Below, one piece after another: positions 202 to 42,722 of a DNA stretch of 64,000 bases. This stretch comes from an uncultured Solirubrobacterales bacterium. Lineage in GTDB: Bacteria > Actinomycetota > Thermoleophilia > Solirubrobacterales > 70-9. The notes beneath the pieces were generated by a model. It ran no database searches, was not told the DNA's origin, and saw only the letters and a program-made list of their open reading frames with translations. The stretch spans positions 27,614-91,613 of the forward strand of contig CAWEBZ010000002.1 in the NCBI GenBank assembly GCA_963807425.1, read 5' to 3'. Position numbers and translations under genes: made by a program. Position 1 is the stretch's first letter. Each line of letters starts with the position of its first letter.

Positions 202-3200
202 TCACTCGGTCGAGATGCTCGGGTCGGCCTGGACCTTGTGCGGGACGACCATGAGGAATTTCTCGCCGGCTTCGGCGGCCAGGCCAAGAACCCGGTCTGC
301 CTCCTCATCCTGATCGGTGGCCCGCAGCTCGTTGGCGTAGTGGCCGAGCAGGTCGTCGACGTCGAGCAGGCCCTCGGCGTCGAGCTCTTTGAGCTCGACC
401 TTGGCACCCTCGCCGAGCCGCCGTTCGATCGCCTCGCGGTCGATGCCGAAGGCGCCGTGGCGAACGTAGACGCGGCCGCCGGTCATGCCGGCGCAGGCCC
501 AGGGACCGAGGTCGCCGAGGACGACGGCACGCCCGGAGGTCATGTACTCGAAGGCAAAGCCCTTGGCGTTGGCGCGATCGACGATGCAGCCGCGGCTGTC
601 GTCGATCTCCTCTTCGGGCTCACCCGCCAGCACCACGTCGGCGCCAGATAGGCGGATGCAGAAGCGCGAATCGGCCGAGCCCTGGACGACGAGGCGGCCA
701 CGCTGGGCACCGTAGGCGAAGGACTTGCCGACCGAGCCGTTGACCCGCTTGCCCTTGGCGCCCTTGCCCTTGAGCACGGACACCGTCCCGCCCAGCATCG
801 TCTTGCCGACGCCGTCTTGGGCACCGCCCTCGACCCGGATCGAGACGCCGTAGGAGTTGAACGCGCCGAGTCCCTGGCCGGCGACCGAGCCGCCGTTGAA
901 CTCGAGGCTGGCGAGCACGTCGTCGTTGGACTCCGGCCCGTCCTCGAAGATCCGGGTGCGGGAGATCGCCCCCGACAGCTCAGTGCCAAGGACGCGGTCG
1001 TTGGCGTCGGTGGCACGGGGGAACTGGTTGCGCACGGTGCGCCCCGAGCAGATGTCGCCGGCGAGAGCGCCAATCTGCGCCGACGCCTGCTTCGCCTCCA
1101 TCCGGATCGGGCGGGCGACGACGAGCCCCGCCTCGGCGCGCGCCTCGTCGAGCTCCTCCGCCACTGGCAGGTCGAGTGGCTCGAGGTCGAGGAACTCCTC
1201 CAGCGGCGTGATCAGCGGTGCCAGGTCAACCGTCTCGTGATGGGAGATCTGCTCGAGCAGGTCGTAGCGGCCGACGAGGTCCTGGGCGCGGTCGTAGCCG
1301 AGCGAGGCGACAACCTGCTTGACCTCCTCGCCCATCGCTTGGAAGAAGCGGGCACAGCTCTCGGCGGCGCCGTCGACCTCCTGCGGGGTGAACTTCTTCA
1401 GCCCGTGCTCCTGCGCCTGCTCGACCGTCTCGATCTGCGTCGCGATGCCGACGTGGCAGGTGTCGAGCTGGCAGCCGCGGCAGATCGTGCAGCCGAGGCT
1501 GACCATCGCCAGGGTGCCGAAGCCGACCCGGTTGGCGCCGAGGCAGTGCAGCTTGACGATGTCGTGGCCATGGCGGTAGCCGCCGTCGGCCCAGATCTCG
1601 ACCCGGTTGCGGATCCCGGCCTCCATCAGCGCCCGGTGCACGGCGCGGGTGCCGATGTCGGAGGGCAGGCCGACGTGGCGCAGCGCGTGCTGGCGGGCGG
1701 CGCCGGTCCCCCCCTCGAAGCCCGAGAGGGTGATGATGTCGGCGCCGGCCTTGGCGATCCCGAGGCCGATCGTGCCGATGTTCGGCACCACCGGCACCTT
1801 GACCGAGACGCGGACGTCGGGATTGACCGTCTTCAGCTCGTCGATCAGCTCGGCGAGATCCTCGATCGAGTAGAGGTCGTGGTTGTTTGACGGTGAGATC
1901 AGATCGGTGCCGGGTGCCGCGTTACGGGCGGCGGCGACCTTCTCGGAGACCTTCTTGCCGGGCAGGTGGCCGCCCTCGCCGGGCTTGGCGCCTTGGCCGA
2001 TCTTGATCTCGGCCAGATAGGAGGAGTTGAGCATCTCCGCCGAGACGCCGAAGCGGCCCGAGGCGACCTGCTGGCCGCGCCACTTGCGGTAGTGGCCGTA
2101 CATGTCGCGGATCTCGCCACCCTCGCCGTTGACGCAGAGGACATTGATCGACTTCGCCGCCTCGGCGTAGGCACGGAAGGCGGGCTCGGACTGGGAGCCG
2201 AAGCTCATCGAGGAGATCACGACCGGGTAGTCGTGGCGGCCGACGCCGGCATCGACGTTCGCCGGATCGACCGGGTCGCGATCCCCCTTCAGGCCCATGA
2301 TGTGGCGCATCGAGATCGGGCTCTGGCTCTCCAGGTCGCGGACCTTCTCCGAGTATTCCTCGTAGGAGCCGGTGCCGTTGGCGGTCGCGATCGCCGCCTT
2401 GTAGACCTTGGGGTAGAAGCGGAAGGTCTTGGCCGGCTTGGCCTCTTCGTCGCCGGCGAGGATCCGCGCCCGCTCGTTGGTGTCCACGTCGAGATCGGGA
2501 AAGCCGAAGCCGCTCGCCTCGGATGCGGCGAAGGCCTCGGTCTGGAAGATCTCGGCCAACTCGGGCTTGACCCCAATCGAGGAGAACTGGCGCGCATAGC
2601 CGCGCACCTCGTGGATCCCGATCGTCGAGATCACTTTCTCCATCCCCTTGTTGAGCGCGTCGCAGAGGTTGGAGACGTCGCTCTCGTAGTCCTCGACGCA
2701 GATCACCTCGACCATCGTGTACGGGCAGACGCCGTTGGCGCCGAGACCGAGGGCGAGCAGGGTGTCGTGGACGTTGCGGAGCGCGGCGGAGCGCAGCACG
2801 ACGCCGCAACGGCGGCGCAGGTTCTCCTCGCCGGGCTCGACCTTGAACTGCTTCAGCGCCTGGTCGACGGCGGAGACAGCGAGGTGAGGGTCGAGGTAGC
2901 GGCGCTCGGCGTCATAGACGGTACGGTCGGTCAGCACCAGCAGCTCGGCGCCGTTGCGGACTTTCTTCACCGCTTCCTGCTTGATCCGCTCGATCGCCCC
3001 CTGGGTCGTCTCGGACTCGAGCAGGGAGATGTCGACGGCGTCGGCGCGGCCGCGGAACTCCTCCCAGAGGTCCTCGAGCAGGTAGGTGCGGTGCTTGCGC
3101 GCGATCGCGCGATAGGTCTTGTCGGAGAGCGGCGCCATGTCGTGATGGCCACCGAGGATCACCGGGAACTCGGTCTCGACGGTGCCGGTGTCCTCGCCTG

Positions 3201-4875
3201 CGGCGTGGATCGAGGGTCGGCGGCCGAACACCGTCCTGGTGGAGAAGTGCTCCATCTCACGTTCGCGGTCGATCGCCGGGTTGGTGACGACGGCAACCGT
3301 CTCCTTGAAGTAGTCGGCGAGGTTCTGGCGCTCCGGCGATAGCGCGGCCAGTGGGCCGTCGTAGCCGAGCGAGCCCACCGGCTCGGACCCGTTCGAAGCC
3401 ATCTGCTGGACGAGTTTGACGTCGTCGCGCTGCCAGCCGAAGCCGGCGAGGACGCGGTCGGAGACCTTGACCGGCTCCTCGGGACCGGCGTCGGAATAGC
3501 CCGGGACCTCGCCGCCCTCGAGCGGGCCACCGGCGTCGAGGGCACGGTCGTAGGGGCCGGCGTCCTCGGCGCCGTTGCGTGCCAGCCAGCGCTTGCGGAC
3601 GATGCGCAGCATCTCGTCGTGGGGGTGCAGGGTCGAGCGCTTGCGCTCGCGGTCGATCTTCACCAGTGCCTTCTCGCCGGGGGCTAGCGGCTTCGGCTCG
3701 GCGGCCATCGCGCTGACCGGGACGACCCCGGGCTCGGAGCTGAAGACGAAGTCCTCCGCGGTCTCCACCTGCCACAGCGGCCGCAGCCCGAGCGCGTCGG
3801 CGGAGAAGACGCATTCGTTGGTATGGCGGGCAATCAGCGCGACCGGCCCCTGGGCGAAGGGGCCCATCGCCTGGTGCAGATACATGTAGAAGCGATGCAG
3901 CTCGGAGGGCATCGAGCGGATCTCCTCGGCGATCGGTGGCACGACCATCTCCATCGCCTCGGCGAGGCTGAGGCCATCGCGGCTGATCAGGGTGTCGATC
4001 GTTCGGTTGAGGTCCTGCGAGTCCGAGGAACCTGGCTGAATCGGCACTCCCAGCATCAGCGCCTCCTGGCGCAGCTGGGCGATCGTGTTGATCTCGCCGT
4101 TGTGGCCGAGCACCGAGAAGGGCTGGACCCGCTTGAAGGAAGGCCAGGTGTTGGTCGAGTAGCGATTGTGGCCGAAGCTGCCGATCGTCTCGAAGCGCTC
4201 GTCGAGCAGGTCGGGGTAGTACTCGCCGAGCACCTTCGGCGCCCCCATCACCTTGTAGACGCAGGTCGTCGCCGAGAAGGACGGAACGTGGACGTCGAGG
4301 CGCTGCTCGAGCTCGATCAGCAGGTCGAAGAGCACGCGGTCGCGGTGCGAGGCGTCGGCGACGAGGCCAGCCAGCTGCCAGAAATGCGGCTCCTCCTCGC
4401 GCGCCGTGGGGCCGAGGGCGGGAGAGTTGACCACCCCAACCCGCTCGGCGAGGATGCGGAAGCCGCCCCGCCCGAGCAGCTCGCGGGCGTCGTGCTGGAT
4501 CCGCTCGCGATCCTGGGAGCGTTCGATGAAGATGTGGGCGACGGCGAAGGCGTCGTCGAGAGTGAGCGAGGGGTCGTGGCCGCCGGAGCGGACCTCCTCG
4601 GCCCAGATCTTGCGCGGCAGGTCGAGCAGCAGCCCGCAGCCGTCGCCCTCGCCATCGACGTTGCCGGCACGGTGCAGCATCTTCCCCAGAGCCGGGATCG
4701 CCAGTTCGATCGGCGCGTGGCTCGGCGTCGCGTCTTTGCGCACGGACGCGTAGATCGCACAGGCGTCCTTGTCCTCGACGCTGGGCGGCGAGACGAGCGG
4801 CCGGTAGGGACGCTCAGGCGAGTAGCGGACGGGGCCGCGCTCGCCGTGAAGCTCACGGGACTGGCTATCGGACAT
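202..4875 (-). CDS. gltB: Glutamate synthase large subunit
   Basis: Uninterrupted 1557-aa ORF with the amidotransferase, FMN/Fe-S and C-terminal GXGXG-type regions typical of GltB. A GGGAGG RBS lies 5 nt upstream of the ATG at 4875. Confidence 0.95.
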   Translation of the reverse strand: MSDSQSRELHGERGPVRYSPERPYRPLVSPPSVEDKDACAIYASVRKDATPSHAPIELAIPALGKMLHRAGNVDGEGDGCGLLLDLPRKIWAEEVRSGGHDPSLTLDDAFAVAHIFIERSQDRERIQHDARELLGRGGFRILAERVGVVNSPALGPTAREEEPHFWQLAGLVADASHRDRVLFDLLIELEQRLDVHVPSFSATTCVYKVMGAPKVLGEYYPDLLDERFETIGSFGHNRYSTNTWPSFKRVQPFSVLGHNGEINTIAQLRQEALMLGVPIQPGSSDSQDLNRTIDTLISRDGLSLAEAMEMVVPPIAEEIRSMPSELHRFYMYLHQAMGPFAQGPVALIARHTNECVFSADALGLRPLWQVETAEDFVFSSEPGVVPVSAMAAEPKPLAPGEKALVKIDRERKRSTLHPHDEMLRIVRKRWLARNGAEDAGPYDRALDAGGPLEGGEVPGYSDAGPEEPVKVSDRVLAGFGWQRDDVKLVQQMASNGSEPVGSLGYDGPLAALSPERQNLADYFKETVAVVTNPAIDREREMEHFSTRTVFGRRPSIHAAGEDTGTVETEFPVILGGHHDMAPLSDKTYRAIARKHRTYLLEDLWEEFRGRADAVDISLLESETTQGAIERIKQEAVKKVRNGAELLVLTDRTVYDAERRYLDPHLAVSAVDQALKQFKVEPGEENLRRRCGVVLRSAALRNVHDTLLALGLGANGVCPYTMVEVICVEDYESDVSNLCDALNKGMEKVISTIGIHEVRGYARQFSSIGVKPELAEIFQTEAFAASEASGFGFPDLDVDTNERARILAGDEEAKPAKTFRFYPKVYKAAIATANGTGSYEEYSEKVRDLESQSPISMRHIMGLKGDRDPVDPANVDAGVGRHDYPVVISSMSFGSQSEPAFRAYAEAAKSINVLCVNGEGGEIRDMYGHYRKWRGQQVASGRFGVSAEMLNSSYLAEIKIGQGAKPGEGGHLPGKKVSEKVAAARNAAPGTDLISPSNNHDLYSIEDLAELIDELKTVNPDVRVSVKVPVVPNIGTIGLGIAKAGADIITLSGFEGGTGAARQHALRHVGLPSDIGTRAVHRALMEAGIRNRVEIWADGGYRHGHDIVKLHCLGANRVGFGTLAMVSLGCTICRGCQLDTCHVGIATQIETVEQAQEHGLKKFTPQEVDGAAESCARFFQAMGEEVKQVVASLGYDRAQDLVGRYDLLEQISHHETVDLAPLITPLEEFLDLEPLDLPVAEELDEARAEAGLVVARPIRMEAKQASAQIGALAGDICSGRTVRNQFPRATDANDRVLGTELSGAISRTRIFEDGPESNDDVLASLEFNGGSVAGQGLGAFNSYGVSIRVEGGAQDGVGKTMLGGTVSVLKGKGAKGKRVNGSVGKSFAYGAQRGRLVVQGSADSRFCIRLSGADVVLAGEPEEEIDDSRGCIVDRANAKGFAFEYMTSGRAVVLGDLGPWACAGMTGGRVYVRHGAFGIDREAIERRLGEGAKVELKELDAEGLLDVDDLLGHYANELRATDQDEEADRVLGLAAEAGEKFLMVVPHKVQADPSISTE

Positions 4876-5397: not shown

Positions 5398-6429
5398 TCA
5401 GTTGCTCCAGTCAGGTTCGAATGCGTTCTTGGCAAGCACCTTTGGCTTGCCGCCTGTGTAAGGGATGCTGACGACCTTGTGGTTAGGACCGGGTTCGAAG
5501 CCGCCGAGACTGCCGAGGACGGTATTGCCGTCGCCGGAGAGGGCGGCACCGACGAAGCCGACCTCACGTTCCTTCGTCAGCGCTTGTTCCGCACCGGTCC
5601 GCGGATTGACCGTGACGGCATAGCTCGTGTCCTGGCCGCCGAACTCGGCGAGCAGGCGCTGTCCATTCGCCGACCACTCGGTGGGAGTCAAGCCCAACAG
5701 CAGCGGTCCAACTTTGGTGTGGGTCAAACGCTTCTGCTGGCTGCCATCCGGGTTCATCAGGAAGAGCTCGTTCTTCGGGGCGTACTTGCGCTGCTTGGCG
5801 CCGAGGAGCTTGACGAAGACGATCTTGCCGATCGGACCCCAGAGGGGACTTTGGGAGCGCCGATCGTGGGTGAGGCGAACCGGTTTGCCGCCGCCCGTAG
5901 CGACGCGGTAGACGTCGCTTCGAAGCGGGAACTTTTCGCTCCCGGCCCTCGAGTAGACCAGTTCATCGCCGGGGGGAGAGAAGCTGAAGCCGCTGAAGTA
6001 GCCGGCCGCGACCGTGCGCTTGGCCCCAGTCGCGACATCCAGCAGAACCAGATTTCGCGAGCCGAGCTCGGCCCCCCGCAGCGCCGCGATCGTCTTCGAA
6101 TCGGGTGAAAAAGCAAGATAGGAGGTCTCCTGCCAAGCGGGCATCAACCTGCGCGAGGGCCCGCCGGCGACCGGCGCCAGCACCAGTTCCTGAGCGTGAC
6201 CGGGACCTTCACGGAGATAGGCGATCGTCTGGCCATCGGGAAGTACCCGCGGGCTCCGTCCCGGGCCGACCCTGCGCGCGCCGGAGCCGTCGTCAGCCGC
6301 GACGTAGACGACAGGGTTCAGCGGATTGCGGGTGTAGGTCAGCGTCGCCTGCGCAGCCACCGGGAGGGAGAGAAGCGCAGCCATAGCGGCGATCAGCGCA
6401 ATCCATCCAGACCTCAGCGTGCCCGGCAT
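5398..6429 (-). CDS. Secreted TolB-like (PD40/WD40-like) beta-propeller protein
   Basis: From the Met at 6429 there is a signal-peptide-like N-terminus (WIALIAAMAALLSLPVAAQA). Blade motifs repeat (FSPDSKT, FSPPGDELVY, NPDGSQ, SGDGNT). Confidence 0.65.
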   Translation of the reverse strand: MPGTLRSGWIALIAAMAALLSLPVAAQATLTYTRNPLNPVVYVAADDGSGARRVGPGRSPRVLPDGQTIAYLREGPGHAQELVLAPVAGGPSRRLMPAWQETSYLAFSPDSKTIAALRGAELGSRNLVLLDVATGAKRTVAAGYFSGFSFSPPGDELVYSRAGSEKFPLRSDVYRVATGGGKPVRLTHDRRSQSPLWGPIGKIVFVKLLGAKQRKYAPKNELFLMNPDGSQQKRLTHTKVGPLLLGLTPTEWSANGQRLLAEFGGQDTSYAVTVNPRTGAEQALTKEREVGFVGAALSGDGNTVLGSLGGFEPGPNHKVVSIPYTGGKPKVLAKNAFEPDWSN

Positions 6430-6469
6430 GCGGCGATGGTAGCCACGTGATCGGCCCGGACCGTGGCGC

Positions 6470-6847
6470 TCAGCCGGGGCCGACGATTGCCGCGGCGACC
6501 AGGCCGCCGCTGACACCGAGAAAGGAGACGACCGCCAGTGAGCGGTACCAGAGGCGTTTCTCGGCGTCGGGATCGAAGGCGAGCGGGACGAAGAGGAAGG
6601 GGTTGACGGCGGTGCCGAAGACGAGGAGCACGGCGATCGCCACCGGCAGGTCCGGGACGGCGAGGCCGACGCCGATCAGGATCAGGCCCATCATCACGTA
6701 GTCGAGGTGGACCTGGCGGATCCGCTGCGGGGCGACGATCCCGATCCGGCGCAGCCACTCGGGCTGCTCTTGGCGGACGACCATCGCCCAGCCCAATAGT
6801 CCGCCGAGCGCCAGCTCGATCAGGCCGATCTGGATCACCCAGTCCAT
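6470..6847 (-). CDS. Small integral membrane protein (4 hydrophobic segments)
   Basis: 125 aa from the ATG at 6847, 2 nt after the thrB stop. The sequence is strongly hydrophobic. I recognise no family. Confidence 0.5.
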   Translation of the reverse strand: MDWVIQIGLIELALGGLLGWAMVVRQEQPEWLRRIGIVAPQRIRQVHLDYVMMGLILIGVGLAVPDLPVAIAVLLVFGTAVNPFLFVPLAFDPDAEKRLWYRSLAVVSFLGVSGGLVAAAIVGPG

Positions 6848-11312: not shown

Positions 11313-12011
11313 TTAGCGTTTGCCGCCGAGCAGGCCGCCGACCGTTTCCACGACTTTGTCGACCGTTTTGCCGACCGGAGTGCTGGGGCCGGCGACGCCG
11401 TTGACGACTTCTTCGGTCACCTGGGTGACACCGGTTTCGCTCAGCGCTCCGCCGACGACTTTGTCGACCCCCGCGACGGTGTCGTTGACGGTCCCCGTGA
11501 CCGCGCCCGAGGTGGAGGACCCGCCGCCAGCGCCACCACCGCCGGCCGAGGAAGTTCCCGGCCCGGCGCCGCCGCCATTGCCGTTACCACCGCTGCTGCT
11601 CGCAGGATTGGAGGCGGCAGGCGAAGGAGAGTCGGCAGAGCCCGGGGTTGGACCGGGGATCGAGGCGGTCGGCGTTTCAGTCGCAGGCGGAGCGGCGGCT
11701 CCAGTGCTCGTGCCACCATCGCCCACCCGTTCGACCGGATTGCCGCCCTGCTGCGATTGCGCCTGACGATTTGCCGTCCCAGCCACTGCTCCGGCGCCCG
11801 CAGTGGCTCCACCAGCGGCCGCGGCCCCTTCCCCGCCCGCCGGCCGGCCGCTAGAGACGGCGGCGCTGTCACCGCTTCCGCCGATCCCGGCGAGCGGCCA
11901 GTCCCTCAGAGCCTGCAGCGAGACGAGCAGGACGAAGGCAACAACAGCGGCCCCAATCAGGGCTGTGCCTGAAACCGCACCTGCAAGATAGGTATGTGCT
12001 TGGCGAATCAA
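11313..12011 (-). CDS. Membrane-anchored Gly/Ala/Ser/Pro-rich hypothetical protein
   Basis: TTG start at 12011. It has one N-terminal TM helix, a long low-complexity G/A/S/P region, and a C-terminal set of short V-x-x-T/V-V-x-G repeats. Confidence 0.45.
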   Translation of the reverse strand: MIRQAHTYLAGAVSGTALIGAAVVAFVLLVSLQALRDWPLAGIGGSGDSAAVSSGRPAGGEGAAAAGGATAGAGAVAGTANRQAQSQQGGNPVERVGDGGTSTGAAAPPATETPTASIPGPTPGSADSPSPAASNPASSSGGNGNGGGAGPGTSSAGGGGAGGGSSTSGAVTGTVNDTVAGVDKVVGGALSETGVTQVTEEVVNGVAGPSTPVGKTVDKVVETVGGLLGGKR

Positions 12012-12121
12012 TCTGGGTCGCCTCGTCGCTTCCTACCCAGAGTCGCAGGACCTTACCCTCGAGACATACTGAATAATTGGATTTTCGAGAAATTTTGGGT
12101 ACGGAAGACCGGATCCGGCCC

Positions 12122-12290
12122 CTAGGAGGGACTGGCGAAACCCGAGTGCGCGGGTCAGCGAGCGCCGGACCAAGCGGGGCAAGGACGCAGGGAGCCCGAA
12201 TAGCAGCGCTATTTGGGCGACCGAGGACGTCGCACCGCGCCGTGTCCGCCGCCGCTGAACGCGTGCGGGGGTTTCGCCAGTCCCTCCTAG
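12122..12290 (+). ncRNA. Candidate structured RNA/repeat element, copy 1 (shares its core with 37064-37162)
   Basis: Closed by exact 22-bp arms (12122-12143/12269-12290). Core blocks AAGGACGCAGGGAGC (12181-12195) and GCGACCGAGGACG (12217-12229) are identical to copy 2. Between them is a hairpin of variable sequence, and the flanking 7-bp helix covaries. Strand was chosen because the G.U and G.A pairs only work on the plus strand. Confidence 0.3.
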
Positions 12291-13478
12291 CTACAGGTAC
12301 CCGAGCGGATCGGTCGGCGCGCCGCTGATCCTCACCTCGAAATGGAGGTGATCGCCATAGCAGTGGCCGGTGCAGCCGACATAGCCGATCACGTCGCCTT
12401 GCGAGACGCTCTGCCCGGAGGCAGCGGCAAAGGAGGACTGATGGGCGTAACAGGTCTGCAGGCCGCCGCCGTGGTCGAGGCAGGTGAAGTTGCCATAGCC
12501 ACCGCTTTCCGCTTCGGACTGCAGCAGCACGACCGAGCCCGAGGCAGCGGCACGGATCGGGGTGCCGGCCGGAACCGCGATGTCGATCCCCTCGTGCATG
12601 CGACCCCATCGCATCCCATAGGTCGAAACGACCGCGCCATCGACCGGCCAGATCAGCTGTCCTGAGCCGTAGCGAATCGGTCCCGCCGGTAGGGGTGCCG
12701 AGGCCGTACCGCCGAGCGTCGCCGCGAGTTCAGCCTGGATCTCGGCAACGTCGCCGTCGAGGTCCTCTTCGGTCTCGCGAATCTTTGCCAGCGCGGCGAC
12801 ACGCTCTCCGCGCACCGAGACCAGGGCCGACTGGCGTTGCTCCACCGCAGCCCGAGCGTTCGACAGCGCCTGCTCTTCGGCCGCGATAGCGTCGCGCGCC
12901 GCCTCGATCTGGTTCTTCGCGGTGCGCAGTCGCGAGACCGTTTCCTTGACCTGATCGCGCAGTTCCCTCACCCGGCCGACGATCGCCTCGTCCATGCCAT
13001 GGATCCGGTTCAGGTACTCCGCCTGGTCGACGAGGTCGTCATATCCCTCGGCGCTGACTAGGACGCTGAGCACATCGGGGGTGCCGGTCTCGTAGATCGC
13101 GACTAGACGCTCGCGCAGCGCAATCAAAGCCCGCTTCAGGTGCGCTCTCATCACCGCGAGGCGTTTCTTCGCGACGTCGAGCTCGGCGACGGCCCGGTCG
13201 AGTTCCGCCTGCTTGGCGTTGAGGCGGACGCGGACCGCAGCCTCGCGGTTGCGCAGCGCCGCGACCTCAGCCGTGAGCCGGTCGATGCGATCGCCGTAGC
13301 GGGAGATCGTCGTCGTCAGCACGCCCGAGCGTTCGCGCACCTTGGAGAGCTTCGCCTCCTTGGCGTCGAGCTGCGATTCGAGATCCTGGGCTGGCGCCGC
13401 CGTGCTCGCTGCGAGTAGCACGATCAGCGCCGCCACGGCGGCAAGCAGAGCCGCCAGGGCAAGGCGAGTCTTGAGCAT
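12291..13478 (-). CDS. M23/LytM-family peptidoglycan endopeptidase with N-terminal coiled coil
   Basis: Signal/anchor sequence, about 230 aa of heptad-like coiled coil, and C-terminal motifs HEGIDIA and HLHFEV. Confidence 0.85.
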   Translation of the reverse strand: MLKTRLALAALLAAVAALIVLLAASTAAPAQDLESQLDAKEAKLSKVRERSGVLTTTISRYGDRIDRLTAEVAALRNREAAVRVRLNAKQAELDRAVAELDVAKKRLAVMRAHLKRALIALRERLVAIYETGTPDVLSVLVSAEGYDDLVDQAEYLNRIHGMDEAIVGRVRELRDQVKETVSRLRTAKNQIEAARDAIAAEEQALSNARAAVEQRQSALVSVRGERVAALAKIRETEEDLDGDVAEIQAELAATLGGTASAPLPAGPIRYGSGQLIWPVDGAVVSTYGMRWGRMHEGIDIAVPAGTPIRAAASGSVVLLQSEAESGGYGNFTCLDHGGGLQTCYAHQSSFAAASGQSVSQGDVIGYVGCTGHCYGDHLHFEVRISGAPTDPLGYL

Positions 13479-36076: not shown

Positions 36077-37066
36077 ATGGACGCGAAGTTTCGGTTTCTG
36101 GAGCCTGACGAGGGCGATGTGCTGTGCGAGGCGATCCGGGTCGCTTACGGAGACAGCTATGACGTGCGCTGGGTATATGACCCAGCCGAGGTATCGGCGC
36201 GACTGGCGGCAGGGACCTATGTGTCATGTGTGGCCGAGTCGGCCGATGGAGAGCTGCTCTGCCATGAGGGGATGAGCCTCAGCGATCCCGGCGACGCCGT
36301 CGGCCACTCGGGCCAGGCGGTGACGATGCCGTCGGCGCGCGGCCAGCACCTCTTCACCCGCACCAAGCAGCACCTGATGGACTGGGCGCGCGAACGAGGC
36401 CTGGCGGGGATGTACAGCGAGGCGACCGCCGCCCACCCCTACAGCCAGCGCGCCAACATCGAGCTAGGTGCGCACGAGACGGGCTTCCTGCTCGGCTGGA
36501 TCCCGGCCTCGGTCTCCAACGACGCGGCGAGCGATGCGCCGCGCCAGCGTCAATCGGCGGCGCTCTTCTACACCAAGTTGAACGACGGCCATGAGCGCGC
36601 GGTCTATGCCCCAGAGCGCCACCGGGAGATAGTCGAGACGACGCTGGAGCTCTGCGAGCTGCGTGGGACGCTGGCCGAGCCCCCGGCCGGAGCCACACTG
36701 GAGGAGCGAACCAAGCTGCAGATCGAGGTCGACGCCGACCACAATCTGGCGCTGATTACCGTGCATGTGCCGGGCCTGGACCTCGAGGCCGTGGTCGCGG
36801 CGGAGCGCCACCACCTCTTCCACCGGGCCGGATTGGACGCCGTCTACCTCGATCTGCCCCTGGAGACCCCGGCGACGGCGCTGGTCGCCGATCACCTCGA
36901 GCGGCTGGGGGTCTCCTATGCCGGCGTCTTCCCCAACAGCCGCACCGACGGCGACGTGCTGCGGATGCAGTCCCTACACCGCGCTCGGATCAAGGCCGAC
37001 GACGTCGCGGTCGCCTCCGAGCACGGCAGGGAATTGCTCGACTACGTGCTCAACGACCTGCCGTAA
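36077..37066 (+). CDS. Hypothetical protein, tentatively with a GNAT-like acetyltransferase N-terminal domain
   Basis: 329 aa. The segment AVTMPSARGQHLFTRTKQHLMDWARERG resembles GNAT motif A. The rest is unassigned. Confidence 0.4.
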   Translation: MDAKFRFLEPDEGDVLCEAIRVAYGDSYDVRWVYDPAEVSARLAAGTYVSCVAESADGELLCHEGMSLSDPGDAVGHSGQAVTMPSARGQHLFTRTKQHLMDWARERGLAGMYSEATAAHPYSQRANIELGAHETGFLLGWIPASVSNDAASDAPRQRQSAALFYTKLNDGHERAVYAPERHREIVETTLELCELRGTLAEPPAGATLEERTKLQIEVDADHNLALITVHVPGLDLEAVVAAERHHLFHRAGLDAVYLDLPLETPATALVADHLERLGVSYAGVFPNSRTDGDVLRMQSLHRARIKADDVAVASEHGRELLDYVLNDLP

Positions 37067-37162
37067 GGCAATTCGGCCAAGCAGATCAAGGACGCAGGGA
37101 GCGAAGCGTGCTTTGCACGCGAGCGACCGAGGACGCCGATATGCGCCAGCCGAATGGCCTTA
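37064..37162 (+). ncRNA. Candidate structured RNA/repeat element, copy 2
   Basis: The outer stem TAAGGCAATTCGGC / GCCGAATGGCCTTA contains both convergent TAA stop codons. Core blocks at 37088-37102 and 37123-37135 are identical to copy 1. The inner hairpin is GCGTGC-TTT-GCACGC. Confidence 0.3.
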
Positions 37163-41075: not shown

Positions 41076-42722
41076 TCAGGACTTCTGGGTCTCGCGCTCG
41101 CGCAGCTCGCGCTTGAGGACCTTGCCGGTCGCGTTGCGCGGCAGCTCGTCGAGGAACTCGATCTCGCGCGGTGCCTTGTAGGAGGCGAGATTGGCCTTGA
41201 TGTGCGCCTTCAGCTCCTCTTCGGAGATCTCGGCCTCTGTCGCAACCACGACGAATGCCTTCAACCGCTGCCCGAACTCCTCGTCATCGACCCCGATCAC
41301 CGCTGCCTCGACCACGGCGCCATGGTCGGCAAGCAGATCCTCGACCTCGCGCGGGAAGACGTTCTCGCCGCCGGAGACGATCATCTCGTCGTCGCGGCCG
41401 TCGATGAAGAGCCGGCCCGCGGCATCGAAGTGACCAACGTCACCGCTGCAGAGCAGGCCGTCGATCGCCTCCTTGCCCCCACCCCCGGTGTAGCCCTCGA
41501 AGGACATCTCGTTGCCGACGAAGATGCGTCCAACCTCGCCCTGCGGCAGGTCCTGACCCGTCTCGTCATAGATCTTGACCACGGTGCCACGCGGCGGCTG
41601 GCCCGCCGTGCCGGGCGCCGCGCGAAGGTCCTCCGGCGTTGCGACCGTCGCGTAGGCGACCTCGGTCGAGCCGTAGAGGTTGTAGACGGAATCGCCGAAG
41701 CGGTCCATCCACTCGATCGCCAGCTCGCCCGGAAGCGCCGAACCCGAGACGGAGGTGATGCGCAGAGAGGAAAGGTCGTATTTGGCGAGCGTCTCCTCGG
41801 GAAGGCGGAGGATGCGCTGCAGCATCACTGGGACTACGCCAAGGACCTCGGCGCGGTGCTCCTGGACCGCGCGAAGCGTCTGCTCGGGATCGAAGCGGCG
41901 CCGCAGCACCATCGTCGACGCGGTCGGCAGGCTGATGACGAAGTGAAAGAAGCCCCAGGAGTGGAAGAGCGGCGCCGCGATCATCATCGTCTCGCGAGCC
42001 CGATACGGGATCTTGTCGATCAGCGCCGCCATCGCCAGGAGACCGTCTGGGCTGGAGCGCTGTGCCCCCTTCGGGGTGCCGGTCGTGCCCGAGGTGAGGA
42101 TGACGAAGCGCGGTTTGTCGGGCGGGGGCTTCAGGTTGGAGTCGTCGTTGGCGGCGATCAGCGACTCGAGCGTGGGACCCTCGGGCGTACCTTCGGCCCA
42201 GGCGACGATGCGAGCGACGCTCTCGTCGACTCCGTCGAGCAGGCCGGCAAACTCCTCGTCGTAAACCAGCGCCTTGGGCCCCTCCCGCCGCATCACCTCG
42301 ACCAGCTGCGGGCCGGCGAACATCGTGTTGAGGTAGAGGGCGCTGGCACCCAGCTTGGCCGCGGCGAGCGTCGTCTCGATGAAGCCGCGGTGGTTGCGGC
42401 ACATGATCCCGATGCCGTCGCCGTGCCCGATCCCCATCGAGGCGAAGGCGTGGGCGAGGGCGTTCGTGCGCCGATGCACCCGCTCGAAGCTGAGCGAGCC
42501 GCGTTCGTCGATCAGCATCGTCTCGTGCGGGTGTTTGTGCGCGGCGGTCGCCACCCCGGTTGCCGGTGAGGCGCCCCAGCGCAGGAAGGTCGTGGCGACC
42601 TTGGCCGCCTTGTCGGGCCGGCTCAAGCCGACGACGCCGGCCTCGCGCAGCACTTTCGCCTCGAACGCCAGGTCCGAAACCGACTGCCGCGCGCTCGACG
42701 CGATTGAGCGGAGGGTTCCCAT
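41076..42722 (-). CDS. AMP-dependent acyl-CoA synthetase/ligase
   Basis: AMP-binding motif LTSGTTGTPKGA and later GYTGGG ... GDVG motifs; 548 aa. Confidence 0.9.
   Translation of the reverse strand: MGTLRSIASSARQSVSDLAFEAKVLREAGVVGLSRPDKAAKVATTFLRWGASPATGVATAAHKHPHETMLIDERGSLSFERVHRRTNALAHAFASMGIGHGDGIGIMCRNHRGFIETTLAAAKLGASALYLNTMFAGPQLVEVMRREGPKALVYDEEFAGLLDGVDESVARIVAWAEGTPEGPTLESLIAANDDSNLKPPPDKPRFVILTSGTTGTPKGAQRSSPDGLLAMAALIDKIPYRARETMMIAAPLFHSWGFFHFVISLPTASTMVLRRRFDPEQTLRAVQEHRAEVLGVVPVMLQRILRLPEETLAKYDLSSLRITSVSGSALPGELAIEWMDRFGDSVYNLYGSTEVAYATVATPEDLRAAPGTAGQPPRGTVVKIYDETGQDLPQGEVGRIFVGNEMSFEGYTGGGGKEAIDGLLCSGDVGHFDAAGRLFIDGRDDEMIVSGGENVFPREVEDLLADHGAVVEAAVIGVDDEEFGQRLKAFVVVATEAEISEEELKAHIKANLASYKAPREIEFLDELPRNATGKVLKRELRERETQKS

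Follow-up and report, generated by a model that had tools for sequence, protein, structure and literature searches.

In this study, we analysed a stretch of 64,000 nucleotides (nt) from an uncultured Solirubrobacterales bacterium (assembly GCA_963807425.1, contig CAWEBZ010000002.1, positions 27,614–91,613 of the forward strand), hereafter called the window. Two of its sites are probably copies of one undescribed, non-coding, hairpin-forming mobile repeat, which is similar to MITEs (miniature inverted-repeat transposable elements) and repetitive extragenic palindromic (REP) elements and is dispersed through the Thermoleophilia. The family is multi-copy, intergenic and linked neither to a particular gene nor to one orientation. 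It occurs in two lengths, has inverted-repeat ends, and is present at some and absent from other orthologous sites. A first-pass annotation of the window, made from the letters alone, had proposed the two sites as copies of a novel structured RNA; copy 1 is the long form and copy 2 the short form of the element.

Both copies share two core blocks letter for letter on the plus strand, AAGGACGCAGGGAGC (block 1) and GCGACCGAGGACG (block 2), at the positions given in Table 1, and every further match to block 1 in the 64 kb has at least three mismatches. The segment between the blocks is a hairpin in both copies, with unrelated sequences (CCGAATAGC-AGC-GCTATTTGG in copy 1 and GCGTGC-TTT-GCACGC in copy 2), the apical type of copy 2 being common to most Solirubrobacterales copies. 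At equal spacing, a 7-bp helix brackets the blocks, also with different sequences (GCGGGGC/GCACCGC and GCAGATC/GATATGC) and with one G·A pair per copy. These features were all found as the first-pass annotation had described them, as was the 169-nt palindrome beside the peptidase gene, whose outer 22 bp pair perfectly and which ends one base before the stop codon (12291–12293) of the M23 peptidase gene on the minus strand. The second site had been delimited as 37064–37162; the element itself measures 95 nt, and the outer bases are flanking TAs. It lies between the stop codons of a plus-strand gene (36077–37066) and a minus-strand sigma-factor gene (37160 onward). The predicted folds have energies of −122.3 kcal/mol (z = −10.9) for copy 1 and −45 kcal/mol (z = −4.5) for copy 2. 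Scanning the window with a covariance model gave 102.3 bits for copy 2 and 75.4 bits for copy 1, while the next match reached 12 bits. The first-pass annotation had recognised no Rfam family, and none was matched: only a tRNA passed when the whole window was compared with Rfam 15 at the gathering threshold, permissive scans of both copies yielded noise only (E at least 0.34), and 14 copies at six other loci gave no Rfam match.

For the size and host range of the family, species-representative genomes were scanned once with the exact pattern GGACGCAGGGAGC-N8-38-GCGACCGAGGAC, so that family size, copies per genome and taxonomic range are lower bounds. The core pattern was found in at least 120 assemblies or loci (loci are given as L numbers). 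All but one of the matches listed were labelled Thermoleophilia, Solirubrobacterales, Gaiellales, Thermoleophilaceae or generically Actinomycetes/Actinomycetota. The odd carrier is a 2.5-kb contig (L100, JANOSQ010000511.1) binned as Fimbriiglobus (Planctomycetota), which bears a copy typical of the beta type described below; given the short contig and the typical copy, it is probably a mis-binned Thermoleophilia contig. The covariance model, a check that the first-pass annotation had recommended, was built from 117 copies. When RNAalifold was applied to the raw MAFFT alignment, the mixture of two apical architectures caused the apical and outer helices to be under-predicted, and a hand-set structure with model-based realignment was used instead. 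The model detected 133 copies in 1.01 Mb of Thermoleophilia DNA; 11 of these were not among the seeds supplied by the pattern, an addition of about one per 80 kb. Copies are sometimes clustered, with both orientations within single loci. The score range of 12–45 bits was empty, which means that heavily decayed copies were not seen. A phage origin was rejected, since IMG/VR viral contigs gave no match, and a single-copy RNA similar to 6S, SRP or Y RNA is ruled out by copy number and dispersal. The literature, searched by sequence and topic, contained nothing on this element, which appears to be a previously undescribed family and the first described interspersed repeat family of Thermoleophilia.

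Judging from comparison with orthologous sites, both window copies are insertions. Orthologues of the plus-strand gene next to copy 2, 83–88% identical, were compared in six relatives, and copy 2 is missing in all six (L121, L122, L123, L124, L129 and L130). In four of them (L121, L122, L124 and L129), this gene and the gene of the ECF-type sigma factor overlap tail to tail at CCTTAGAGG (CCT-TAG-AGG). The product of the former is a conserved protein of 329 aa, which some sources label GNAT or RsbW and which has no Pfam hit. The overlap comprises 4 nt, TTAG, with the TA common to both stop codons (L121 3487–3490, L122 3466–3469, L124 3511–3514, L129 2508–2511). L130 has a 19-nt spacer between the two genes, and L123 has another downstream neighbour. 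Where the empty site reads CCT TAG AGG, the window reads CTG CCG TA-AGGCAATTCGG...CCGAATGGCCT-TA GAGG. Most simply, the element would have integrated into TTAG at its TA and duplicated this TA, the first A and the last T of the element recreating a TAA stop codon for both genes. An origin of the outer arm (P1) from an inverted target duplication was rejected, as the arm sequence does not occur in the empty site.

For copy 1, four peptidase orthologues, 86–90% identical, were available for comparison (L125–L128). The element is missing in all of them, and the spacer to the next gene measures 99–108 nt versus 279 nt in the window, where the extra 169 nt directly follow the peptidase TAG (C-TA-GGAGGG...CCCTCC-TA-G). 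Other loci bear signs of movement as well. The inner part of copy 1 recurs with about 90% identity at an unrelated locus (L061). Two further copies, L046 2060–2172 and L103 6424–6536, start at the stop codon of orthologous genes (86% identical) in opposite orientations and with different arms and inner helices (P2), and the last 5–7 codons of these genes differ, which indicates that this gene end received insertions repeatedly and independently. L110 carries two inverted copies (4622–4788 on the plus and ~6490–6655 on the minus strand), separated by 1.9 kb. The two agree to about 97% in their interiors but not in the outer arms, each of which contains an altered block of three bases (TTT/AAA versus CCC/GGG); this concerted change suggests arm-to-arm templating or module exchange between the copies.

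Read 5′ to 3′ on the plus strand, the element consists of a P1 arm, a 2×3 loop (AA/GCC), the helix P2, a second 2×3 loop (AA/GCC), the core and an apical hairpin. P2 comprises 7 bp, namely a G-C and a C-G pair, then four to five free pairs, often with one G·A, and a closing C-G pair. Within the core, GGAC facing GGAC pairs as G-C, G·A, A·G and C-G, followed by a 3×2 loop (GCA against GA), and GGGAGC facing GCGACC forms two Watson-Crick pairs, a tandem G·A/A·G and two more Watson-Crick pairs. The latter pairing had been anticipated in the first-pass annotation; the purine-rich symmetric loop placed beside it turned out to be a nearly continuous G·A helix with small 2×3 and 3×2 loops. The two core strands are near-identical in reading (AA...GGAC...GCC), which gives the core an approximate two-fold symmetry. 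The core is not self-complementary and is purine-rich on the plus strand only, in agreement with the first-pass remark that G·U and G·A pairs are possible on the plus strand only. The apical hairpin is of two types: one has a 9-bp stem, and the other a GNN/RA loop with GYGTGC-NNN-GCACRC after it. In L003 and likewise in L037, copies of a single genome have a common apical hairpin and P2 helices that are wholly different yet compensated. Against a small peptide gene, which was rejected, stood an apical part of varying length that is not divisible by three, and the lack of a start codon at a suitable distance from the GGAGG of the alpha terminal repeat.

The copies fall into two discrete sizes of about 96–108 nt (mode ~103) and about 161–185 nt (mode ~167), the window copies measuring 95 and 169 nt. 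In the short form, P1 pairs over 17 bp, beyond which pairing is at background level, and the arms have a weak sequence consensus. Long forms carry about 30 nt more per side, and their ends are formed by conserved terminal repeats, which belong to three families or more: alpha (TA-GGAGGGCTTGGCGGAAC), which includes window copy 1, beta (TA-GAGCTCCTAACACAATGA and relatives) and gamma (TA-GTGGTTCTCCTGG and relatives). Without exception, the repeats surround a core in inverted pairs, 147–150 nt apart. TA precedes 20 of the 25 alpha-type repeats (80%), which flank cores in L001, L014, L029, L062, L072, L084, L110 and L115, and L001 has two different terminal-repeat families in one genome. Throughout the 1.01 Mb, neither split or orphan half-cores nor unpaired terminal repeats nor matching long-range inverted repeats were present. 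As to whether the long form may be a short element nested in another palindrome, neither outer-only palindromes nor a TA at the inner junction were found. As a separate observation, L094 has an extra GCGACCGAGGAC block in one outer arm (~1745–1760), imperfectly mirrored in the other arm, which may be the remnant of a nested or rearranged element.

The proposed conservation of a structure with covarying helices is upheld across the family. In the model-based alignment, which is fitted to the structure of the model so that pair counts lean towards it, standard pairs occupy 90.3% of cells versus 69.1% with shuffled partners and 23–40% with partners slid by 1–3 columns. Cells changed on both sides number 645 against 181 expected, double changes affect 21 of the 28 modelled pairs, and the P2 columns contain GC, AU and CG at near-equal counts. 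Mismatches within helices are G·A or A·G in 140 cases and C·T or T·C in 10, and the plus strand is predicted to be more stable than the minus strand in 101 of 118 copies. As the 122 seed cores are exact by construction, the unbiased sample of core variation consists of the 11 unseeded copies, with a mean of 1.5 substitutions per 25 core positions. Four of them share the same C-to-T change giving G·U, one has U·G plus G·U, and one has a compensatory swap from C-G to G-C, so that the core variants are mostly wobble-compatible or compensatory. Because the mismatches are nearly all G·A and seldom C·T, and because of these wobble and compensatory variants, we infer selection on one folded strand, the purine-rich one.

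The same data would suit a host-functional structured RNA module at gene ends, for which mobility was only the route of arrival: as part of a 3′ untranslated region or an intercistronic transcript, the hairpin would bind a host protein and set mRNA 3′ ends, stability or processing, a role played in other bacteria by the hairpins of REP, ERIC and Correia elements. Selection for folding of the plus strand alone, its greater stability and the lack of heavily decayed copies favour such a role, and a core and junctions that are kept while the helices covary are the usual signature of a functional RNA. The position of the copies relative to genes bears on both sides of the question; as the gene calls used for orientation follow a simple codon-position GC rule, which is crude, the following counts are noisy. 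A flanking-gene stop codon abuts 48 of 118 elements, a preference for gene 3′ ends as a host role would have it, but the orientation relative to the abutting gene is random, with 26 on the sense and 32 on the antisense side (both sides in 10 of the 48). Between tandem genes there is a mild sense excess (32 versus 17), yet clear antisense cases between co-directional genes exist as well (window copy 1 and the L037 copies 495–607 and 6386–6499). Also, promoter-like sites are lacking at both window copies, as are U-tract terminators on either strand, and the element is dispensable in relatives at both window sites. In view of these points, we consider a host RNA module rather unlikely.

The genes around the copies are diverse. 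The 210 neighbouring proteins form 195 clusters, and sampled neighbours are ordinary or housekeeping proteins (ThiS, ThiF, ABC ATPase, glutaredoxin, BolA, IF-1). An element regulating the M23 peptidase or the sigma factor in cis was rejected, since neighbours are unrelated across loci and relatives are without the element at both sites, and an intrinsic (Rho-independent) terminator was rejected because the hairpin lacks a U tract at both window copies. At L037, a 90-aa ThiS gene is bracketed by copies of the same orientation (5998–6110 and 6386–6499, both on the plus strand), the second of which lies within the thiF-thiS pair, antisense to both genes, while the third copy of this locus (495–607, minus strand) is 5.4 kb away.

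Strand-specific folding with tolerance of G·A and G·T would also fit mobility of the REPIN kind, in which a HUH tyrosine transposase, either a REP-associated tyrosine transposase (RAYT) or one of the IS200/IS605 type, would move the element as folded single-stranded DNA, recognising the mismatched hairpin and cleaving at its foot. The long hairpin with fixed arm length and free arm sequence is compatible with this, and the repeated AA/GCC loops resemble the mismatches of E. coli REP, in which mismatched AA/GC residues are needed for RAYT cleavage (PMC3733652). However, a GTAG tag is lacking, CGTC occurs on the minus strand only and as a direct, not inverted, repeat, and both the TA flanks and the conserved 19–22-bp terminal inverted repeats are foreign to REP or IS200/IS605. 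Single-stranded DNA transposition coupled to the lagging strand would be expected to leave a GC-skew bias, but the flank GC skew oriented by the element averaged −0.002 (p = 0.43), which gives no support to a replication-coupled orientation in general. No Y1 transposase gene was found beside the few genes checked (ten neighbouring proteins, not a systematic set), and we know of no RAYT association of this element family. An origin of this kind is therefore improbable in our view. A family of independently transcribed small RNA genes, to which the conserved strand-specific fold with covariation and the lack of an Rfam match could be attributed, is very improbable, as the 45 nt before and after the short form show no conserved sequence, no promoter- or terminator-like site occurs at the window copies, the element exactly fills the space between stop codons and even supplies them, and insertion polymorphism and dispersal fit a mobile repeat. 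Dispersal, random orientation, the lack of a promoter and the empty orthologous sites likewise led us to abandon the first-pass proposal of a separate gene for a structured RNA, and the peptidase is not supported as the target of a cis-regulatory RNA either.

For a MITE-like or REP-like mobile repeat, the reading that we prefer, the elements have the properties of being small and non-coding, with terminal inverted repeats and dispersed copies showing presence/absence polymorphism. Many copies with conserved termini and target-site duplications had been named in the first-pass annotation as what would reveal a MITE in place of an RNA; many copies with defined inverted-repeat termini were indeed found, and the TA flanks of both window copies, which the empty site CCT-TA-GAG fits, are consistent with target duplication. 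Several points weigh against this reading. Around half of the short copies have no TA, their ends being CTGA...TCAG or other sequences. Since TA is palindromic, it is indistinguishable from the last pair of the palindrome, and the junction is resolved at copy 2 alone, where a duplicated TA requires one synonymous CCT-to-CCG change. No autonomous transposon or transposase, and thus no cognate element with the same ends, occurs in the 1.01 Mb, a sample too small to exclude one. The weakly conserved arms of the short form are unusual for a transposase recognising sequence-specific ends, and for core variation the unbiased estimate comes from the 11 unseeded copies. Finally, cut-and-paste of double-stranded DNA alone leaves the strand-asymmetric core, the inner-helix covariation and the concerted arm change in L110 unexplained.

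A fairly well supported scheme for the mobility would start with integration at TA, often that of a stop codon or of CTAG or TTAG where convergent genes meet. The TA would be duplicated, and the purine...pyrimidine ends of the element would rebuild stop codons for the genes on both sides. TA-targeting of this kind is typical of DDE transposases of the IS630/Tc1-mariner type. By analogy, the TA flanks, the use of CTAG or TTAG as targets and the rebuilt stop codons would suggest a DDE transposase specific for TA, and mobilisation in trans by an enzyme of the IS630/Tc1-mariner type would be a fairly well supported step as well.

The part of the scheme that concerns the core is weaker. The core would be an irregular helix with two tandem G·A/A·G pairs, one further single G·A and small 2×3 and 3×2 loops, in which AA-GGAC-GCA-GGGAGC may pair against GCGACC-GA-GGAC-GCC in a conserved manner. 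It would probably be the recognition module for a protein reading the folded purine-rich strand, as single-stranded DNA or RNA; such a protein is suggested because one core is common to different terminal repeats, the inner helices covary and selection acts on one strand. As its identity, the mobilising enzyme is a tentative proposal. A host RNA-binding or RNA-processing protein acting on element-containing transcripts is possible, if somewhat doubtful, and a host factor acting at the DNA level on the extruded hairpin is an unlikely candidate.

A further idea, which we hold to be speculative and unlikely, is that the GA-rich asymmetric core is the handle of an undescribed structure-guided system, in which a dedicated Thermoleophilia protein would bind the irregular G·A helix of the core on a folded single strand and act at a fixed distance from it. 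Arms of fixed length and free sequence, and size classes about three helical turns apart per side, would fit such a fixed distance. The system might either move the element or employ it as a portable cassette for gene ends, which would supply both strands with a stop codon and a hairpin, and the arm replacement in L110 and the near-free variation of P2 would then be its products and not ordinary drift.

Thermoleophilia are abundant in soil and genetically almost unstudied, and the element can be useful as a metagenomic marker for this group. It also matters for genome annotation, since it can contribute the stop codon of a gene and the final residues of the protein, and since annotators can take it for an RNA gene or a terminator. 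The combination of MITE behaviour with RNA-like conservation, that is, a non-Watson-Crick core, covariation and a strand-specific fold, makes it a place to seek a new hairpin-recognising protein. If it is merely a selfish MITE, it would be one whose insertion at overlapping convergent stop codons is made harmless by rebuilding both.

The coordinates of both window copies are summarised in Table 1.

Table 1. Positions of the two element copies and of their parts in the window
Feature	Position	Strand	Remarks
Copy 1, long form, whole palindromic element	12122–12290	+	169 nt including flanking C-TA...TA-G
Left flanking TA, copy 1	12123–12124		sequence read; within CTAG 12122–12125
Left terminal inverted repeat, alpha family (GGAGGGACTGGCGAAACCC), copy 1	12125–12143	+	complements 12269–12287 perfectly
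P2 5′ strand, copy 1 (GCGGGGC)	12174–12180	+	pairs with 12232–12238, one G·A
Core block 1, copy 1 (AA GGAC GCA GGGAGC)	12181–12195	+	exact match
Apical hairpin P4, copy 1	12196–12216	+	9-bp stem, AGC loop
Core block 2, copy 1 (GCGACC GA GGAC G)	12217–12229	+	exact match
P2 3′ strand, copy 1 (GCACCGC)	12232–12238	+	pairs with 12174–12180
Right terminal inverted repeat, copy 1 (GGGTTTCGCCAGTCCCTCC)	12269–12287	+	complement of 12125–12143
Right flanking TA, copy 1	12288–12289		sequence read
Left flanking TA, copy 2	37064–37065		with A37066, TAA stop of plus-strand gene 36077–37066
Copy 2, short form	37066–37160	+	95 nt between two TAs, convergent genes on both sides
P2 5′ strand, copy 2 (GCAGATC)	37081–37087	+	pairs with GATATGC 37138–37144
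Core block 1, copy 2	37088–37102	+	exact match
Apical part, copy 2	37103–37122	+	GAA/GA 3×2 loop, then hairpin GCGTGC-TTT-GCACGC
Core block 2, copy 2	37123–37135	+	exact match
Right flanking TA, copy 2	37161–37162		with T37160, TAA stop (minus strand) of sigma-factor gene

Two other features of the window were noted. Upstream of the open reading frame 11313–12011, a stretch of about 100 nt on the minus strand (12012–12100; TACYCAAAATTNCTCGAAAATCCAATTATTCGGTATGTC...CCTGCGACCCTGGGTAG.AAGCGA) is A+T-rich in a genome of 68% G+C and is far better conserved than the rest of the spacer in five genomes. This stretch resembles a conserved promoter or 5′ leader belonging to the Pro/Gly-rich protein of 232 aa, and a permissive Rfam scan of its 12050–12100 part gave no match. 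At 42150–42249 on the minus strand, ARAGORN reported a tRNA-Ala (cgc) of 100 nt whose anticodon lies at position 38, on which the Rfam tRNA model was silent at the gathering score; this may be an interrupted or a false tRNA.

Among known systems, the Correia elements (CREE/NEMIS) of Neisseria are non-coding repeats of 100–160 bp with terminal inverted repeats, TA duplication and length classes, located intergenically and near gene ends, and they form long RNA hairpins when transcribed. The Thermoleophilia element resembles them as a small dispersed non-coding repeat with inverted-repeat ends, TA flanks, a hairpin and length classes. It has no sequence similarity to them, belongs to another host group and spans a whole class and not a genus. 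Also, Correia elements are conserved over their full length, whereas here only a 25–30-nt non-complementary GA-rich core and the junction loops are conserved while the helices covary. MITEs of the IS630/Tc1-mariner type, such as Nezha of cyanobacteria, and the targets of IS630 and IS870 are characterised by TA duplication, a preference for NTAN or CTAG, terminal inverted repeats and an interplay with stop codons. Terminal inverted repeats are found here as well, together with probable TA/CTAG targets and a probable interplay with stop codons; unlike for these MITEs, no cognate autonomous element was found in the 1.01 Mb, several unrelated terminal-repeat families surround one core, and many short copies have no flanking TA. 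The enterobacterial ERIC sequences, also called IRU (127 bp), are imperfect palindromes of about 100–170 nt that are transcribed from intergenic positions in either orientation and affect mRNA stability. In contrast to the Thermoleophilia element, ERIC sequences are conserved over their full length, with no invariant asymmetric core and no comparable helix covariation.

At the level of RNA motifs, the G·A/A·G steps flanked by G-C pairs (GGAC/GGAC and GGGAGC/GCGACC) are similar to those of kink-turns and other tandem G·A motifs. By inspection, a kink-turn was rejected, as Watson-Crick pairs lie on both sides of both G·A steps, there is no 3-nt bulge directly 5′ of them, and four extra nucleotides interrupt the would-be non-bulged strand. 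REP and REPIN sequences share with the element that they are extragenic imperfect palindromes, often between convergent genes, with important mismatches, and that they are thought to act and move as folded single strands (PMC3733652). REP units comprise 20–40 nt with a GTAG or CGTC tag, and the survey describing them reported no Actinobacteria (PMC3733652). Unlike these units, the element of Thermoleophilia is a single hairpin of 95–169 nt with TA flanks and terminal repeats, and GACG/CGTC occurs twice in its core as a direct repeat.

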